Positions 2,883-64,000 of a DNA stretch of 64,000 bases are shown here, one piece after another. How positions within the stretch are numbered: position 1 is the first letter of the stretch; each line of letters begins with the position of its first letter. The position numbers and the translations under genes were made by a program. The notes beneath the pieces are model-generated. The model ran no database searches. It saw nothing but the letters and a program-made list of their open reading frames with translations, and was not told the origin of the DNA. Source of the stretch: Escherichia coli (GTDB taxonomy: Bacteria > Pseudomonadota > Gammaproteobacteria > Enterobacterales > Enterobacteriaceae); NCBI RefSeq assembly GCF_050320075.1, contig NZ_CP190018.1; one strand, written 5' to 3'.

Positions 2883-2897
2883 TTCTTGCGAGTTTCA

Positions 2898-2926
2898 GAA
2901 AAGGGGGCCTGAGTGGCCCCTTTTTT
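2898..2926 (+). terminator. rpsO intrinsic terminator
   Basis: aaaagggggcctgagtggcccctttttt: near-perfect GC hairpin plus T-run immediately after rpsO stop. Confidence 0.8.
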
Positions 2927-3128
2927 CAAGCTGACGGCAGCAATTCACTGGAAACTAATGTATTGTTGCTATGAATGATCTTCCGTTGCAGAGGTTCGCG
3001 CGGCTAATGAGAGGCTTTACCCACATTGGGCTGGGTTAGGGTTGTCATTAGTCGCGAGGATGCGCAGAAGATCGGGTATTAACACCAGTGCCGTAAGGTA
3101 CTGTCTAAGAAAGAGAAAGGATATTACA
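2927..3128 (+). promoter_or_regulatory. pnp promoter/leader region (RNase III-processed autoregulatory leader by established knowledge)
   Basis: About 200 nt untranslated region upstream of pnp with a TTG start; position-based call, motif not verified. Confidence 0.45.
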
Positions 3129-5264
3129 TTGCTTAATCCGATCGTTCGTAAATTCCAGTACGGTCAACACACCGTGACTCTGGAAACCGGCATGATGGCT
3201 CGTCAGGCTACTGCTGCTGTTATGGTTAGCATGGATGACACCGCGGTATTTGTTACCGTTGTTGGCCAGAAAAAAGCCAAACCAGGTCAGGACTTCTTCC
3301 CACTGACCGTTAACTATCAGGAGCGTACCTACGCTGCTGGTCGTATCCCGGGTAGCTTCTTCCGTCGTGAAGGCCGCCCAAGCGAAGGCGAAACCCTGAT
3401 CGCGCGTCTGATTGACCGCCCGATTCGCCCGCTGTTCCCGGAAGGCTTCGTCAACGAAGTTCAGGTTATCGCCACCGTGGTTTCTGTTAACCCGCAGGTT
3501 AACCCGGATATCGTCGCGATGATTGGTGCTTCCGCAGCACTGTCTCTGTCTGGTATTCCGTTCAATGGTCCGATTGGTGCTGCCCGCGTAGGTTACATCA
3601 ATGACCAGTACGTACTGAACCCGACTCAGGACGAGCTGAAAGAGAGCAAACTGGATCTGGTTGTTGCGGGTACTGAAGCCGCTGTACTGATGGTTGAATC
3701 TGAAGCTGAACTGCTGAGCGAAGACCAGATGCTGGGCGCAGTAGTGTTCGGTCATGAACAACAGCAGGTTGTTATTCAGAACATCAATGAACTGGTGAAA
3801 GAAGCCGGCAAACCGCGTTGGGACTGGCAGCCGGAGCCGGTAAACGAAGCGCTGAACGCGCGCGTTGCTGCACTGGCTGAAGCTCGTCTGAGCGATGCTT
3901 ACCGCATCACCGACAAACAAGAGCGTTATGCGCAGGTTGATGTCATCAAATCTGAAACCATCGCGACGCTGCTTGCTGAAGATGAAACCCTGGACGAAAA
4001 CGAACTGGGTGAAATTCTGCACGCTATCGAGAAAAACGTTGTTCGTAGCCGCGTACTGGCAGGCGAACCGCGTATCGACGGTCGTGAAAAAGATATGATT
4101 CGTGGTCTGGATGTGCGTACTGGCGTGCTGCCGCGTACTCACGGTTCTGCGCTGTTTACCCGTGGTGAAACTCAGGCGCTGGTTACCGCAACGCTGGGTA
4201 CTGCACGTGACGCGCAGGTTCTTGATGAACTGATGGGCGAACGTACTGACACCTTCCTGTTCCACTACAACTTCCCTCCGTACTCCGTAGGCGAAACCGG
4301 CATGGTCGGTTCTCCGAAGCGTCGTGAAATTGGTCACGGTCGTCTGGCGAAGCGCGGCGTGCTGGCAGTCATGCCGGATATGGACAAATTCCCGTACACC
4401 GTACGTGTGGTGTCTGAAATCACCGAATCCAACGGTTCTTCTTCTATGGCTTCCGTGTGCGGCGCGTCTCTGGCGCTGATGGACGCAGGTGTGCCGATCA
4501 AAGCTGCTGTTGCGGGTATCGCAATGGGTCTGGTGAAAGAAGGCGACAACTACGTTGTACTGTCTGACATTTTGGGCGACGAAGATCACCTGGGCGATAT
4601 GGACTTCAAAGTTGCGGGTTCCCGCGACGGTATTTCTGCATTGCAGATGGATATCAAAATTGAAGGTATCACCAAAGAGATCATGCAGGTTGCACTGAAC
4701 CAGGCTAAAGGTGCGCGTCTGCATATCCTGGGCGTAATGGAACAGGCGATCAACGCGCCACGTGGCGATATCTCTGAGTTCGCTCCGCGTATCCATACCA
4801 TCAAGATCAACCCGGACAAGATCAAAGACGTTATCGGTAAAGGCGGCTCTGTTATCCGTGCCCTGACCGAAGAAACTGGCACCACTATCGAAATCGAAGA
4901 TGACGGTACTGTGAAGATCGCAGCGACCGACGGCGAGAAAGCGAAACATGCTATTCGTCGTATCGAAGAGATCACTGCAGAAATCGAAGTGGGCCGCGTC
5001 TACAATGGTAAAGTGACCCGTATCGTTGACTTTGGCGCATTTGTTGCCATCGGCGGCGGTAAAGAAGGTCTGGTACACATCTCTCAGATCGCTGACAAAC
5101 GCGTTGAGAAAGTGACCGATTACCTGCAGATGGGTCAGGAAGTACCGGTGAAAGTTCTGGAAGTTGATCGCCAGGGCCGTATCCGTCTGAGCATTAAAGA
5201 AGCGACTGAGCAGTCTCAACCTGCTGCAGCACCGGAAGCTCCGGCTGCTGAACAGGGCGAGTAA
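3129..5264 (+). CDS. pnp: Polynucleotide phosphorylase (PNPase), TTG start
   Basis: ORF translation [21 protein letters not shown]...; 711 aa from TTG at 3129; C-terminal KH/S1 region. Confidence 0.93.
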
Positions 5265-59529: not shown

Positions 59530-60516
59530 TTAACCGAAGCGAACATCTCGTCCATGCGGTTCATCGAGATCCTGCCACGGACCAATTGAAATAATCCCCG
59601 TAGGGTTGATGGTCTTATGACTGCGGAAGTAATGATTACGGATGTGATCGAAATTGACGGTTTCGGCAATCCCCGGCATCTGGTAGATATCTCGCAGGAA
59701 ACCATACAGGTTCAGGTAATCGCTGATGCGGTGCTTATCACACTTGAAGTGGGTGACATACACCGGATCAAAACGCACCAGCGTGGTCCACAGGCGAATA
59801 TCGGCTTCGGTTAGCTGGTTGCCGGTCAGGTAACGATGCTGGCCTAAAATCTGCTCCAGTCGCGCCAGCGATTCAAACACTTTCACTACCGCCTCGTCGT
59901 AGGCTTGCTGGCTGGTGGCAAAACCGGCTTTATACACGCCATTGTTAACGGTGTCATAAATCCAGCCGTTAAGTTCGTCAATTTTCGTTTGCAGGGCTGA
60001 TGGGTAGTAATCACCCGCTTTCGCGCCCAGCGCATCAAACGCGGTATTGAACATGCGGATGATTTCTGCTGATTCGTTGCTGACGATGGTGTGGTTCTTT
60101 TTGTCCCACAGCACGGGAACAGTAACTCGTCCGCTGTAGTGTGGATCGGCGTGGAGATAAAGCTGATACAGAAATTCATGTTGATAGAGCGTATCTCCGG
60201 TTGCACCCGGAAAACTGTCATCAAATGTCCAGCCGTTTTCCAGCATCAGCGGGTTCACTACGGAAACGGAAATAAACGGTTCCAGTCCTTTGAGTTTACG
60301 CATGATCAGCGTGCGGTGCGCCCACGGGCAGGCGAGTGAAACATAGAGATGATAACGATCTTTCTCTGCGATAAAACCGCCTGTGCCAGTGGGGCCTGGC
60401 GCGCCATCGGCAGTGAGCCAGTTACGAAATGCGGAAGCTGAACGTTGAAATTTACCGCCGGTAGATTTGGTATCGTACCAGGTGTCATGCCAGACGCCGT
60501 CAATCAGTTGACCCAT
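59530..60516 (-). CDS. yqjG: Glutathionyl-hydroquinone reductase (Xi-class GST-like)
   Basis: Start MGQLIDGVWHDTWYDT (328 aa). Confidence 0.88.
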   Translation of the reverse strand: MGQLIDGVWHDTWYDTKSTGGKFQRSASAFRNWLTADGAPGPTGTGGFIAEKDRYHLYVSLACPWAHRTLIMRKLKGLEPFISVSVVNPLMLENGWTFDDSFPGATGDTLYQHEFLYQLYLHADPHYSGRVTVPVLWDKKNHTIVSNESAEIIRMFNTAFDALGAKAGDYYPSALQTKIDELNGWIYDTVNNGVYKAGFATSQQAYDEAVVKVFESLARLEQILGQHRYLTGNQLTEADIRLWTTLVRFDPVYVTHFKCDKHRISDYLNLYGFLRDIYQMPGIAETVNFDHIRNHYFRSHKTINPTGIISIGPWQDLDEPHGRDVRFG

Positions 60517-60545
60517 ATTTCTCTCCTCCAATAGCAAAAACGAGG

Positions 60546-60574
60546 AGCTTCCTCCTCGTTTTTTATCGTTAAGT
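60546..60574 (-). terminator. Hairpin plus T-run (bidirectional-looking terminator) between yqjF and yqjG
   Basis: aaaaacgaggagcttcctcctcgttttt: perfect stem with A-run and T-run on either side. Confidence 0.65.
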
Positions 60575-60585
60575 ATAGCTCGTGC

Positions 60586-60978
60586 TTACCACTTTTTATT
60601 CAGCAGGCGGTCGATGCTATACGCGCCCGGACCGGTAATTGCCAGCAGCAGGAATCCGCCAGAAATTGTCAGGTTTTTCATGAACATCAGCGAGTTGACG
60701 CCTTCAGCAAAGTTGCTGTGAAATAAAAATGCCGTCAGCAGCGTAAAGCCCGCAGTAAACAGGGCTGTGGTGCGAGTCAGGAAACCGAACAGGATTGCTA
60801 GACCACCACCAAACTCAAGCAGAATCACCAGCGGCAGCATAAAGCCTGGGACACCCATCGCTTCCATATATTGTTGGGTACCCGCGTAGCCAGTAATTTT
60901 TCCCCAGCCTGCGGTAATAAACAGAATCGGCATTAAAATGCGCGCTACCAGTACACCAACATCTTCTAATTTTTTCAT
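60586..60978 (-). CDS. yqjF: DoxX-family inner-membrane protein
   Basis: Start placed at MKKLEDVGVLVARILMPILF (130 aa). Confidence 0.82.
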   Translation of the reverse strand: MKKLEDVGVLVARILMPILFITAGWGKITGYAGTQQYMEAMGVPGFMLPLVILLEFGGGLAILFGFLTRTTALFTAGFTLLTAFLFHSNFAEGVNSLMFMKNLTISGGFLLLAITGPGAYSIDRLLNKKW

Positions 60979-61163
60979 CATACTCTCCACTGCGCCACTC
61001 AGGCTGCTGATTGTTTTTTTGTGCAAGGGCGCGGTATTAGCGTCGTTGCTGTCGATGGAGAGAATCATAAACGTGGTGAATGATGAATGTTAGCAAGGAA
61101 AACTGTCAAAAATCTTCAAAAAATTTGAGGGATAAGGCCGGAATGGCTCCGGCCAGAGGGAAG

Positions 61164-61463
61164 TTAACCGCGAAGTTGTTGCTGCTTGAGGGTCGTTTTC
61201 ACCAGACGCCAGGCGCTCCATACGCCAAAACCGCGTCTGGCCCAGCGGACCAGCATATTAGGATGGCGAATCGTCCAGATCGCCATCACGCTACTGCCTA
61301 CCAGCGCCCAGGAGCGCAGACTTAGCAGCATATTCCAGCGACGATCGTAAGCGCCTGTTGCCTCCAGCCATTCACGACGACTGGCGGAAAGATCCAGCCG
61401 TTGTTGCTGGATCTGGCTCAGCAGTTGCGCCTTACGTCGTTCACGTTCGACTTTACTGCTCAC
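61164..61463 (-). CDS. yqjK: Uncharacterized small protein YqjK (probable GTG start)
   Basis: 99 codons from VSSKVERERRKAQLLSQ; overlaps yqjE 3' end. Confidence 0.7.
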   Translation of the reverse strand: MSSKVERERRKAQLLSQIQQQRLDLSASRREWLEATGAYDRRWNMLLSLRSWALVGSSVMAIWTIRHPNMLVRWARRGFGVWSAWRLVKTTLKQQQLRG

Positions 61464-61857
61464 GGGACTCCTCCTCGAGCAGCTGCCGATCGTTTGCCAG
61501 CTCATGGCGTGTATGGCGCAGCAGGGTGGATTTACGCGATTTACGTAACGTCCAGATACCGCCAATCAGTGCCAGTAGCAGCAACACCACGGTGGTGGCA
61601 ATCATCGCATTCAGGCGATATTGCGGATCAACCGCCCAAATAATCAGCACCATCAGGCTCATAAGACCAAATGCAGCGAAAAGCATCGTCAGGCCCAGCA
61701 TCAGTAAAAGTTGAAAGAGATTCGCTTTTTCCTCTTCCAGCTCCACCACCGCCAGCCGCAGACGTGTTTCCACCATTTCAACCATGATGGAAACAATTCG
61801 CTGCCCGATGCCCAGAACGCTTTTACCGGGCCCTTGCGCGTGATGAGTGTCCGCCAT
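61453..61857 (-). CDS. yqjE: Inner-membrane protein (DUF1469)
   Basis: Start placed at MADTHHAQGPGKSVLGIGQ (134 aa). Confidence 0.82.
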   Translation of the reverse strand: MADTHHAQGPGKSVLGIGQRIVSIMVEMVETRLRLAVVELEEEKANLFQLLLMLGLTMLFAAFGLMSLMVLIIWAVDPQYRLNAMIATTVVLLLLALIGGIWTLRKSRKSTLLRHTRHELANDRQLLEEESREQ

Positions 61858-61859
61858 AA

Positions 61860-62165
61860 TTAACGACGCGACAGCAGAACGCCGAGCACTACACCGATTG
61901 CAGCGCCAATGCCCACGCCCGTCCACGGGTTTTCACGCACATACTCATCGGCACGCGCCGCCGCGACACGGGTTTGTTTGGCGATGGCATCACCGGTTTC
62001 ACCCAGGCGATAACGGCTCTGTTTCAGTGCCTGCTCCGCTTTGCTACGAATCTTACTCAACTCTTCTTTCGACTTCTCGCCAGATGAGCTAAGTACCTCT
62101 TCCAGCGTATCGGAAAGGGATTTCAACTCAGCACGCAGATGTTCCGTAGTGTGTTCTTTCGACAT
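61860..62165 (-). CDS. yqjD: Ribosome-associated membrane-anchored protein (ElaB/YgaM/YqjD family)
   Basis: 101-aa ORF with C-terminal TM anchor GVGIGAAIGVVLGVLLSRR. Confidence 0.85.
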   Translation of the reverse strand: MSKEHTTEHLRAELKSLSDTLEEVLSSSGEKSKEELSKIRSKAEQALKQSRYRLGETGDAIAKQTRVAAARADEYVRENPWTGVGIGAAIGVVLGVLLSRR

Positions 62166-62202
62166 AGTTTTCTCCAGGTGAGTAAGTAGTGACTATTGTG
62201 AG

Positions 62203-62571
62203 TTAGTAGTCGCGCGCTTCCAGCTTTTTCAGCTCTTCCTGCGCTTCTGCCAGTTTCCGTTCGCGTTTGGCAATCTTATCGGCATCGCCTTTTTGCTTCG
62301 CCTCGGTTAAATCTTGCTGGCGTTCCGCCACCTCATCTTTCTGCTTTGCGATTTTCTTCTGATGATCGGCACGCAGCTGGCTATCTGAACAGTTGGCCCG
62401 GACTTCACTCAGGGCTTTATTCAGACCGTCAATACGATTCTGGTTTTGGTGTTTTTCGGCATAGCTGATCTCCTTAAGGATATTTTGCTCCTTTTCCTGA
62501 CACAGGGTAGTGGCATAACTACCGGCACTAAGAGCAAAGAGAGAAACAGCTAAAGCGATGCGGTATTTCAT
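62203..62571 (-). CDS. yqjC: Periplasmic protein (DUF1090), signal peptide
   Basis: Start placed at MKYRIALAVSLFALSAGSYA (122 aa). Confidence 0.82.
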   Translation of the reverse strand: MKYRIALAVSLFALSAGSYATTLCQEKEQNILKEISYAEKHQNQNRIDGLNKALSEVRANCSDSQLRADHQKKIAKQKDEVAERQQDLTEAKQKGDADKIAKRERKLAEAQEELKKLEARDY

Positions 62572-62717
62572 TCTTGAACCTTCCATTGTGATTCGGACCT
62601 ATTACAAAGGAACGATTGTCCAGACAACGAAGCGGTAGTGTTAACCACCGCCTCATTAATCATAGACAGTTACGGTGAAATCACCAAAGTCAGTGATATG
62701 TTTCGGATAACAGGAAG

Positions 62718-63101
62718 TTATCCGAAGCGATGAGAGTTATCCCGCAACCGGGTCAGCCACTGCATAGCCTGACTATTATTGTCCTGCTGCGCGATGATGT
62801 AGCCATGGGGCAATGTTCTGTCGAGGACCGCTTTTGCGGCGGCACTCTGGTCGCTGGAGTCAAAGGTAATTAACAGAGTGTCATTTTTGGGGGTGATACT
62901 TTTGAAAGGAATGCCGTGAGCGTCAAGGTGATGCCAGATTGAAAAACCGTCTGGCATCGTTGTCCCTTGATGAACGGCACGAATCGCCAGCGTAGACTCT
63001 TGCTGGCGAACCGCGGACCAGGCCAGCAACAGTGTGCCGACCAGAAGTAAAACAGCGCCGGACCAGGCTAGCTGGCGAAGCGACATGCGAGGTATTTGCA
63101 T
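62718..63101 (-). CDS. mzrA: Modulator of EnvZ/OmpR
   Basis: 127-aa ORF with N-terminal TM segment. Confidence 0.85.
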
Positions 63102-63104
63102 CCC

Positions 63105-63767
63105 TTACCCCCGATTTCCATATTTCTTTTTCCATAACACGACCAGAGAACCTGCCAGGCCAAACACCAGCAGCACCACCGGGAGCAGCATCAGGCATGA
63201 CATCAGCTGGTCCTCGTACTTTAAAAATACCGGCGTTTTGCCGAGCATGTAACCCAGAGTTGTCAGGATCAATACCCACAGCAGACCGCTCATCCAGTTG
63301 AAGAACTGAAAGCGCGCGTTATTCAGCCCTGATAATCCGGCAATCGTCGGCAGCAGTGTTCTGACAAATGCAATAAAGCGACCAATTAACAGCGCCGATA
63401 AACCGTGTTTATGAAAAAGATGGTGTGCGCGTTGATGATAATGCGCGGGTAAATGAGATAGCCAGTTTTGTACAGTGCGGGTATTGCCCAACCATCGCCC
63501 CTGAATATAGCTGACCCAGCAACCGAGGCTGGCGGCAACGGTCAGCAGCAGAATCGTTTGCGGATAGCCCATCGCGCCTTTCGCAATCAATACGCCGACC
63601 AACACCAGTAAACTGTCGCCCGGTAAAAAGGCCGCCGGAAGCAAGCCGTTTTCAAGGAACAAAATTACAAACAAGACAAAATACAACATGCCAATCATCG
63701 ACGGATTGGCCAGGGTTTCAAAATCCTGCGCCCACAGGGCTTGCAGCAATTGGGTCAAAAGTTCCAT
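63105..63767 (-). CDS. yqjA: DedA-family inner-membrane protein
   Basis: 220-aa membrane ORF. Confidence 0.88.
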
Positions 63768-64000
63768 TCATTATTCCTGGTGAATCGGTTAACGCCACGC
63801 TGGTTTTAAAAGATGCACTACCGCAATGTTATTGCTGTTTTGGTATGTTTTGCGGGTTTGATACATCAACACAGCCTGAACTATTCCCTGTTAAATCGTG
63901 AGATAAGAAAGCATTCAAAAGCATAAATTCAAATTGAATCTAATTGTAACAAAGGTCAACGTTGTTCGTTATCAAAATTACATGTCCGTAGAGTCTGATT

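Follow-up and report, generated by a model that had tools for sequence, protein, structure and literature searches.

The yqjC-yqjD-yqjE-yqjK operon of Escherichia coli: a conserved yqjD-yqjE-yqjK core with probable translational coupling

The window analyzed here, a stretch of 64,000 nt from E. coli (contig NZ_CP190018.1), carries the published yqjC-yqjD-yqjE-yqjK (yqjCDEK) operon, a chromosomal unit of stationary phase and osmotic stress. The operon, its promoters, its control by CsrA and the activity of YqjD have already been published, and the finding itself is nothing new. The yqjD-yqjE and yqjE-yqjK junctions were left unanalyzed in the study of this operon (Pourciau et al., 2023, mBio, PMC10746276). 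Judged from sequence comparison, the conserved core of the locus is yqjD-yqjE-yqjK (D-E-K), with YqjE probably translated only by ribosomes that are finishing yqjD. Taken as a whole, the account given below (identity of the locus, its published control, D-E-K coupling, and YqjE and YqjK as partners of the YqjD anchor) is regarded with high confidence as the best explanation of this stretch.

The stretch showed 100% DNA identity over 1751 nt to annotated E. coli chromosomes and was found in 5422 of 5426 complete E. coli genomes. The RefSeq gene table of a 100%-identical chromosome lists yqjC, yqjD, yqjE and yqjK with coordinates and order matching those of the window (Table 1). All four genes lie on the minus strand between wide flanks (146 nt to mzrA and 185 nt to yqjF), and the neighbors of the locus are yqjA, mzrA, yqjF and yqjG (RefSeq), an order kept in 77 of 80 Enterobacteriaceae species. 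This comparison set consists of the best 80 loci from a genome scan with a narrow YqjE alignment, all of which belong to Enterobacteriaceae. Relative to the yqjCDEK/yqjDEK operon of E. coli K-12 (PMC10746276), the genes, their order and their start codons are identical, and matching bases occur in the window for each published transcription start and −10 element and for the four CsrA sites; the window represents another E. coli strain, with a few amino-acid differences at most and nothing substantial. An Rfam scan of positions 60400-64000 at E ≤ 1 gave zero matches.

A previous sequence-only reading of the region had placed the four genes correctly to the base, as seen from the open reading frames and the RefSeq table. 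Its gene names, the tail anchor of ElaB/YqjD type and the link to stress were also right (Pfam, RefSeq, PMC10746276). The sequence bears out the distance of 2 nt between yqjD and yqjE and the 11-nt overlap of yqjE and yqjK that it had described, and its GTG start for yqjK is backed by the comparison of starts across the 80 species. Its view of the module as still poorly characterized holds for YqjC, YqjE and YqjK only, as the operon structure, the sigma-S and CsrA control and the activity of YqjD are published; the operon mapping that it had suggested as a check is largely in the literature already.

Table 1. Coordinates of genes and regulatory features of the yqjCDEK stretch within the window.
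Feature	Position	Strand	Description	Basis
yqjC	62203-62571	minus	ATG start, 122 aa, DUF1090 protein	ORF, Pfam, RefSeq
yqjD	61860-62165	minus	ATG start, 101 aa, tail-anchored inner-membrane protein	ORF, Pfam
yqjE	61453-61857	minus	ATG start, 134 aa, inner-membrane protein	ORF, Pfam, AlphaFold model
yqjK	61164-61463	minus	GTG start, 99 aa, YqjK family	ORF, Pfam PF13997
yqjC sigma-S promoter	62653-62665	minus	−10 CTATGAT at 62659-62665, C at −13	PMC10746276 mapped onto sequence
yqjC transcription start	62653	minus	A, −82 from ATG	PMC10746276 mapped onto sequence
CsrA site BS1 (AUGGA)	62579-62586	minus	overlaps yqjC Shine-Dalgarno AAGG	PMC10746276
Internal yqjDEK sigma-S promoter, inside yqjC	62266-62278	minus	−10 TAAGAT at 62273-62278	PMC10746276 mapped
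yqjDEK start region	62266-62270	minus	CCAAA, −105 to −101 of yqjD	PMC10746276 mapped
CsrA sites BS2-BS4	62173-62239	minus	upstream of yqjD	PMC10746276 and GGA motifs in sequence
BS2, BS3 GGA	62237-62239, 62219-62221	minus	GGA at −74 and −56 of yqjD	
BS4 GGA	62173-62175	minus	inside yqjD Shine-Dalgarno GGAG	
yqjK Shine-Dalgarno (GAGGAGGAG)	61468-61476	minus	Glu codons of YqjE C-terminus (LLEEE)	sequence
Hairpin GGCCGGA-GCCAU-UCCGGCC	61136-61154	minus	10 nt past yqjK stop	fold, centroid −14.1 kcal/mol

Transcription of yqjC is directed by a sigma-S promoter and begins 82 nt upstream of the ATG (PMC10746276). During growth CsrA keeps ribosomes off the binding sites of yqjC and yqjD; its sites BS2 and BS3 were placed between −80 and −50 of yqjD, and BS4 on the yqjD Shine-Dalgarno (SD) sequence. 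CsrA action at the yqjC leader also influences the output of yqjD (PMC10746276). The published A(−15)G mutation (PMC10746276) maps to position 62586, within BS1. Among the 80 species, the CTATGATT block of the yqjC −10 region and the CCTGGAGAAAACTATG block covering BS4 and the yqjD SD are conserved, and the CACAATGGAAGGTTC block covering BS1 and the yqjC SD is near-invariant. It was further reported that cold and oxidative stress shift yqjC and yqjDEK in opposite directions, that YqjD reaches an abundance up to 20-fold above that of YqjC, and that global mapping of transcription starts predicts extra starts upstream of yqjE and yqjK (PMC10746276). A generic promoter and terminator scan produced counts no higher than those of shuffled sequences and picked up neither of the published sigma-S promoters, nor the hairpin after yqjK.

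The product of yqjC matched Pfam DUF1090 (E = 8.6e-35, 119.5 bits, cut-off 24.4). Its N-terminus consists of a signal-peptide-like segment (MKYRIALAVSLFALSAGSYA), read by eye from the sequence without a predictor, which is followed by a Lys/Glu-rich helical part containing two Cys, and YqjC is predicted to be a periplasmic protein. The spacing between yqjC and yqjD is 37 nt in the window and ranges from 12 to 85 nt among the Enterobacteriaceae species. The gene is present in 80 of 80 Enterobacteriaceae loci and absent from Proteus and nine more distant D-E-K loci. This conserved neighborhood suggests that YqjC adjoins the D-E-K core only in Enterobacteriaceae loci and is regulated partly on its own.

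The tight packing of yqjD, yqjE and yqjK is, by comparison of their junctions, more than chance. The yqjD-yqjE gap, which is 2 nt in the window (TAA-TT-ATG), measures −1, +1 or +2 nt in all 80 species, and the yqjE-yqjK junction, an 11-nt overlap in the window (GTGAGCAGTAA), lies between −11 and +6 nt in all 80 and is overlapping in 75. Anti-SD pairing upstream of yqjE amounts to +1.1 kcal/mol in the window and is at least −1.7 kcal/mol in 80/80 species; yqjE has no SD in any of them. For yqjD, which has an SD of its own, the median pairing in the 80 species is −6.4 kcal/mol. At one distant locus with a D-E gap of 34 nt, GGAG precedes the yqjE homolog. As the SD-less yqjE begins 2 nt past the stop codon of yqjD, its translation probably depends entirely on ribosomes that arrive from yqjD and reinitiate after terminating there (termination-reinitiation). 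Coupling of this type is a general mechanism in bacterial operons. The yqjD/yqjE pair resembles such systems in the 2 nt between its stop and start and in its SD-less downstream gene, and the yqjE/yqjK pair in having a stop/start overlap with an internal SD, the mechanism in this operon being deduced from sequence.

It is expected that yqjK would then start at its GTG inside the end of yqjE, aided by the strong SD within the tail codons of YqjE. Anti-SD pairing before yqjK is −11.8 kcal/mol in the window, with a median of −9.3 kcal/mol in the 80 species, and an SD-like match precedes the gene in 78 of them. At the homologous position the start codon of yqjK is GTG in 45 species, ATG in 34 and TTG in one; in 50 of the 80 it is preceded, at 0-2 codons, by an in-frame stop, and an alternative upstream start is absent in 60. 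D-E-K coupling would link the production of the three membrane proteins, and repression of yqjD by CsrA would also reach yqjE and, probably, yqjK. The extra starts predicted before yqjE and yqjK would allow some uncoupled expression.

Outside the set of 80, YqjE was found in ten distant contexts, including Halomonas, Acidiferrobacterales, Rubrivivax, Proteus, Ca. Pantoea carbekii and metagenomes. A gene bearing DUF883_C and a third gene that is YqjK or YqjK-like were present in 10/10 of these, and a DUF1090 gene in 0/10. In two of them the anchor is kept and the DUF883 N-terminal domain is replaced by CsbD, which suggests that the association of YqjE is with the membrane anchor. The divergent third genes of other loci gave weak but consistent scores against the YqjK profile. 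A similar arrangement is the PA3040-PA3042 locus of P. aeruginosa, in which <15 bp separates a DUF883 gene, a yqjE-like gene and a third, small gene, and whose expression rises under envelope stress and in stationary phase (PMC11302039). The product of the third gene, PA3042, was reported to have no recognized domain (PMC11302039); by analogy with the divergent third genes elsewhere it may also be YqjK-like.

YqjD matched Pfam DUF883 (PF05957, 4e-13, residues 8-60) and DUF883_C (PF19029, 1.4e-15, residues 72-101), both above the cut-off. It has a single C-terminal hydrophobic segment (residues 80-100), a glycine-zipper transmembrane helix at the extreme C-terminus, with Pro80 directly before the helix (...VRENP80WTGVGIG); this P80 is functionally important in published work. 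The genes of ElaB and YgaM are not known to have yqjE or yqjK neighbors of their own. Binding of YqjD to ribosomes was reportedly first described by Yoshida and colleagues in 2012. YqjD is a C-tail-anchored inner-membrane ribosome-inactivating (hibernation) factor, with ElaB and YgaM as paralogs arising from its duplication, and the synteny of yqjD with yqjE and yqjK has already been noted in a cross-linking study of YqjD, which names the two as conserved neighbors only (Njenga et al., 2024, bioRxiv 10.1101/2024.08.16.608256). The YqjD of the window shares the DUF883 N-domain, Pro80 and the glycine-zipper anchor with this tail-anchored ElaB/YgaM/YqjD family. The YqjD dimer, formed via the transmembrane helix, has been described as binding the 50S subunit at the tunnel exit, upon which translation stops. 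In vitro, YqjD inactivates ribosomes without YqjE or YqjK, and even with foreign transmembrane helices, so the partners are dispensable for the core activity.

YqjE matched Phage_holin_3_6 (PF07332, 3.5e-21, 75.8 bits, cut-off 28.4). It has two hydrophobic segments, with a long N-terminal helix bearing a conserved TRLxL..ELEEEK motif that runs into TM1, then TM2, and it ends in a predicted C-terminal cytoplasmic helix; the AlphaFold model (pLDDT 89.5) contains helices 10-74, 77-108 and 111-132. YqjK matched PF13997 (4.5e-25, 88.3 bits, cut-off 28.1, residues 14-86), and its model (pLDDT 86) shows a long helix (2-66) ending weakly hydrophobic, then a basic amphipathic helix (68-98). When the models of YqjE and YqjK were compared with PDB folds, no match reached E < 1, and PDB sequence or profile searches yielded no genuine match for any of the four proteins, the single YqjD match having no qualifying stretch.

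From the conserved neighborhood it is suspected that YqjE, as a membrane hairpin of two helices, and YqjK would be membrane partners of the YqjD anchor, probably acting on the membrane assembly or dimerization of YqjD, and dimerization is the step reported as required for ribosome inactivation. In its most specific form, which is put forward as a tentative and rather doubtful possibility, YqjE and YqjK would serve the DUF883_C glycine-zipper anchor as dedicated partners inside the membrane; made in cis at a fixed proportion to YqjD via SD-less reinitiation, they would gate YqjD dimerization and thereby determine the timing and location of membrane-tethered ribosome shutdown. If this were true, the CsbD-anchor variants would mean that the YqjE/YqjK pair recognizes the anchor and not the ribosome-binding domain, and CsbD-type general stress proteins may be functional analogs of the DUF883 head. 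The conserved SD-less yqjD-yqjE junction, together with the constant association of YqjE-YqjK with DUF883_C, offers a concrete, testable ground for examining YqjE and YqjK as candidate regulators of a membrane-bound ribosome-hibernation factor. This is of practical value in an operon whose sole understood product is YqjD, which parks ribosomes at the membrane. It should also be noted that YqjD-YqjE and YqjE-YqjK fusion proteins present in databases were rejected as evidence of interaction: they are frameshifts into the upstream extension of the next frame, with the YqjD anchor destroyed.

The sequence-only reading had proposed one uniform co-translated module of four genes, YqjC included, with a single transcript and, by extension, a single complex. 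The co-orientation of all four genes in 80/80 Enterobacteriaceae loci agrees with this, as do the probable contribution of the yqjC promoter to yqjDEK transcription and the effect on yqjD of CsrA bound at the yqjC leader (PMC10746276). However, a second sigma-S promoter inside yqjC drives yqjDEK, the YqjD excess and the opposite cold and oxidative responses (PMC10746276) separate the two parts, and the D-E-K loci of Proteus and the nine more distant contexts do without a DUF1090 gene. The predicted locations differ too, with YqjC in the periplasm and the soluble parts of YqjD, YqjE and YqjK in the cytoplasm. A uniform four-gene module is thus very unlikely; tight packing applies to yqjD-yqjE-yqjK but not to yqjC, given its variable spacing and the separate ribosome-binding site of yqjD, and co-translation, as suggested by the junction statistics, likewise applies to these three genes with yqjC set apart. 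It is rather unlikely that YqjE and YqjK are envelope-stress membrane proteins independent of YqjD and adjacent to it only through shared stationary-phase control. The partner-free function of YqjD in vitro fits this, and in P. aeruginosa the growth, biofilm, pyocyanin and tobramycin phenotypes of PA3040-3042, a locus responding to envelope stress, map to the third gene alone (PMC11302039). Shared control, however, needs no SD-less junctions of reinitiation type, yet these are conserved in 80/80 species, and it leaves aside the DUF883_C anchor gene of all ten distant YqjE contexts, two of them with a CsbD head.

The family assignment of YqjE raises another reading, in which YqjE would be a holin-like permeabilizing or depolarizing effector that induces dormancy, with YqjK as its regulator and co-expression as the only link to YqjD. 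YqjE does resemble the phage holins of Phage_holin_3_6 ('Actinobacterial Holin-X') in profile, small size, two transmembrane helices and charged C-terminal tail, and its over-production alone has been published to slow growth and raise persistence >100-fold. The same over-expression screen, however, picked the ordinary membrane proteins PntA and FocA, so the toxicity of YqjE is not specific, and the P. aeruginosa proteins PA3040 and PA3041, the latter the YqjE homolog, were non-toxic on over-production (PMC11302039). Unlike phage holins, YqjE has neither phage relatives nor a lysis partner: a PHROGs search returned zero families at E ≤ 0.01, and tblastn against 50,697 phage records gave two matches, both fragments of enterobacterial chromosomes. 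No annotated lysis or prophage gene occurs among the neighbors of this core chromosomal locus, a lysis gene is absent in the ten distant YqjE contexts, and yqjE is kept in a symbiont genome of 1.15 Mb. A holin-like effector is therefore quite improbable, and 'phage holin family protein' is a family label for YqjE which should not be read as a function.

Returning to the D-E-K unit, the hairpin after yqjK is its probable 3′ end of transcription. A T run of E. coli (61118-61123) lies 13 nt beyond this hairpin, and the terminator scan made no call here; at such a distance the hairpin does not look like a canonical intrinsic terminator. A T-rich tail was seen in 28 of the 71 species having a hairpin of ≤ −8 kcal/mol after yqjK. 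Hairpins of ≤ −12 kcal/mol within 80 nt of the yqjK stop were present in 67 of the 80 species, compared to 10 of 240 shuffled sequences.

The window ends in the gene order exuR-yqjA-mzrA-yqjC-yqjD-yqjE-yqjK-yqjF-yqjG, all on the minus strand, and 146 nt separate yqjC from mzrA upstream. Several complete E. coli chromosomes were found to be 100% identical over 61000–62750, a stretch contained in 5422 of 5426 complete genomes (coverage at least 80%), and RefSeq annotates one of these identical chromosomes with precisely the four genes yqjC to yqjK noticed in the sequence-only reading. As this annotation, the recomputed coordinates and Pfam agree, that observation is confirmed in all its details of genes, starts and spacings. 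YqjC belongs to DUF1090, YqjD carries DUF883 and DUF883_C (the glycine-zipper transmembrane anchor), YqjE matches Phage_holin_3_6 and YqjK the YqjK family, all far over the cut-offs; the ElaB-type membrane anchor ascribed to YqjD is correct. The locus is an operon that already has a name and an annotation and has been studied by experiment.

Features of the yqjC–yqjK region (window coordinates) and of three distant loci (L-numbers) with YqjE homologues
Feature	Position	Strand	Details
yqjC	62203-62571	minus	ATG, 122 aa, 37 nt before next gene (recomputed)
yqjD	61860-62165	minus	ATG, 101 aa, 2 nt before next gene (recomputed)
yqjE	61453-61857	minus	ATG, 134 aa, -11 nt (overlap with next gene; recomputed)
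yqjK	61164-61463	minus	GTG, 99 aa, 185 nt to yqjF (recomputed)
yqjC transcription start	A at 62653	minus	CTATGAT just upstream; published site mapped to sequence
Internal yqjDEK start	CCAAA 62266-62270	minus	TAAGAT upstream; published site mapped
CsrA site BS1	AUGGA 62582-62586	minus	published site mapped
CsrA GGA motifs	62237-62239, 62219-62221, 62173-62175	minus	published sites mapped
Divergent third-position genes	L092:3375-3701, L094:2896-3204, L096:2860-3189		YqjK layout, weak YqjK-profile scores, no Pfam hit on record

To compare the gene junctions, 80 loci, each from a different species of Enterobacteriaceae, were collected by scanning genomes with an alignment of YqjE. The complete order yqjA-mzrA-yqjC-yqjD-yqjE-yqjK-yqjF was present in 77 of these, the remaining three being truncated by contig ends. 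Without exception, the 80 species space yqjD and yqjE by −1, +1 or +2 nt, and none has a Shine-Dalgarno (SD)-like match of at least 4 nt upstream of yqjE. For the 18-nt stretch preceding yqjE, the best pairing energy with the 16S anti-SD never fell below −1.7 kcal/mol, against medians of −6.2 for yqjC, −6.4 for yqjD and −9.3 kcal/mol for yqjK. It is inferred from this arrangement that yqjE would be translated essentially via reinitiation by ribosomes terminating at yqjD, in which case yqjE should also be silenced when CsrA represses yqjD at its SD. At the yqjE–yqjK junction the spacing was −11 nt (11 species), −8 (11), −4 (42), −1 (11), +1 (1), +2 (3) or +6 (1), with GTG (45 species), ATG (34) or TTG (1) as the yqjK start codon. 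The codons of the conserved acidic YqjE tail (CTGGAGGA...) encode the yqjK SD, and ribosomes would here be recaptured through this strong SD despite the weak start codon.

The yqjK start is pinned by an in-frame stop no more than two codons upstream in 50 of the 80 species. In E. coli the frame is open for 34 codons upstream of the GTG (61164–61565, minus strand), which is why public YqjK gene calls span 99–134 aa; the cross-species comparison supports the 99-aa form. Apparent YqjD–YqjE and YqjE–YqjK fusions also occur in public E. coli and Salmonella protein sets (entries P0002, P0003, P0034, P0014, P0039 and P0060), and these were attributed to frameshifts running into the reading frame of the following gene, which is open upstream of its start. 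It should be noted that P0034, a 230-aa YqjE–YqjK cluster, has 74 member sequences and may therefore represent a genuine allele of some lineage.

Ten distant contexts of YqjE homologues were compared: Proteus faecis, Candidatus Pantoea carbekii, Halomonas, an Acidiferrobacterales MAG, Rubrivivax and five other contigs, some metagenomic. All ten contain a gene for a DUF883_C anchor and a third gene abutting or overlapping the yqjE homologue, from which it follows that the conserved unit is anchor protein, YqjE and YqjK. Pfam assigns the third gene to YqjK in six loci; in three it is divergent, with weak but consistent scores against the YqjK profile; the "domain-less" PA3042 of Pseudomonas aeruginosa may be a similarly divergent YqjK. 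In locus L093 a YqjK-family gene with a GTG start (2889–3182) overlaps the yqjE homologue by 17 nt and scores 50 bits with the YqjK profile built here; the gene calling of the source assembly had missed it. L092 has a long gap of 34 nt between the anchor gene and the yqjE homologue, which is preceded by GGAG. The strongly reduced 1.15-Mb genome of the insect symbiont Ca. P. carbekii keeps an 83-aa DUF883_C protein, YqjE and YqjK, joined by a 2-nt gap and then a 4-nt overlap, which argues for a housekeeping-level value of the three-gene core. In the low-GC loci L085 (2501–3535) and L093 (2501–3475) no DUF883 gene lies upstream of yqjE–yqjK, and the pair is followed by an 82-aa protein with CsbD and DUF883_C both over the Pfam cut-offs. 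This suggests that the pair accompanies the anchor and not the ribosome-binding head, and these fusions link CsbD-type stress proteins to the YqjE/YqjK module.

DUF1090 was found in none of the ten contexts, and in Proteus yqjA is followed directly by yqjD-yqjE-yqjK-yqjF, with mzrA and yqjC absent. Among the loci examined, yqjC thus stands beside the unit only in the Enterobacteriaceae, in agreement with its separate promoter logic and opposite stress responses (PMC10746276). The reading of all four genes as a co-translated, stress-related module holds for the coupling and the stress link and was partly too broad, since yqjC lies outside the coupled core and the operon mapping it proposed has largely been published (PMC10746276).

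YqjD, ElaB and YgaM are C-tail-anchored proteins which bind at the tunnel exit of the 50S subunit and halt translation, an activity requiring dimerisation via the transmembrane helix, and DUF883 genes across bacteria are accompanied by yqjE- and yqjK-like genes (Njenga et al., 2024; bioRxiv 10.1101/2024.08.16.608256). In P. aeruginosa the homologous operon PA3040–3042 is induced in stationary phase and under envelope stress (PMC11302039), and over-produced YqjE leads to slower growth and higher persistence (PMC4738310). Going by the conservation of the gene neighbourhood and the architecture of the junctions, the most economical hypothesis makes YqjE and YqjK putative membrane partners of the YqjD anchor.

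The AlphaFold2 model of YqjE (74-sequence alignment, pLDDT 89.5) is confident and all-helical, with a long helix (10–74) that contains the conserved TRLxL..ELEEEK motif and runs on into the first transmembrane segment; after a tight turn come a second transmembrane helix (77–108) and a C-terminal helix (111–132). That of YqjK (33 sequences, pLDDT 86) has a long helix (2–66) with a weakly hydrophobic end and then a basic amphipathic helix (68–98). Searches with both models and with sequence profiles matched no solved structure. Despite the Pfam match to Phage_holin_3_6, YqjE had no PHROG match, and both matches among 50,697 phage records were chromosomal fragments rather than genuine phage homologues. 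As YqjE is also a core-genome protein without a lysis neighbour, the holin label should not be taken for its function.

The operon was dissected by Pourciau et al. (2023; PMC10746276), who placed a sigma-S-dependent start 82 nt upstream of the yqjC ATG, a second within yqjC, 101–105 nt upstream of yqjD and serving yqjDEK, and four CsrA sites, of which BS1 covers the yqjC SD, BS2 and BS3 fall between −50 and −80 of yqjD and BS4 covers the yqjD SD. In the 80 species the −10 block is near-invariant, as are both SD/CsrA blocks. Salt induction of yqjC–yqjE was described in a 2026 reporter study. Downstream of yqjK, a hairpin of −12 kcal/mol or lower was detected in 67 of 80 species versus 10 of 240 shuffles and probably marks the end of the transcription unit; that of E. 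coli (61136–61154) lacks an adjoining U tract. A palindrome, GGTGATTTCACC (62674–62685, minus strand), occupies roughly positions −32 to −21 relative to the published yqjC start; it is strongly conserved in the 80 species although intergenic, and no assigned regulator was found for it. The mzrA stop codon (62718–62720) is spanned by a 10-bp perfect hairpin, UUCGGAUAAC-UUCCU-GUUAUCCGAA (62702–62726, minus strand), with a folding z-score of −6.3 against shuffles and no U tract after it, which may form the 3′ end of the yqjA-mzrA transcript or stabilise it.
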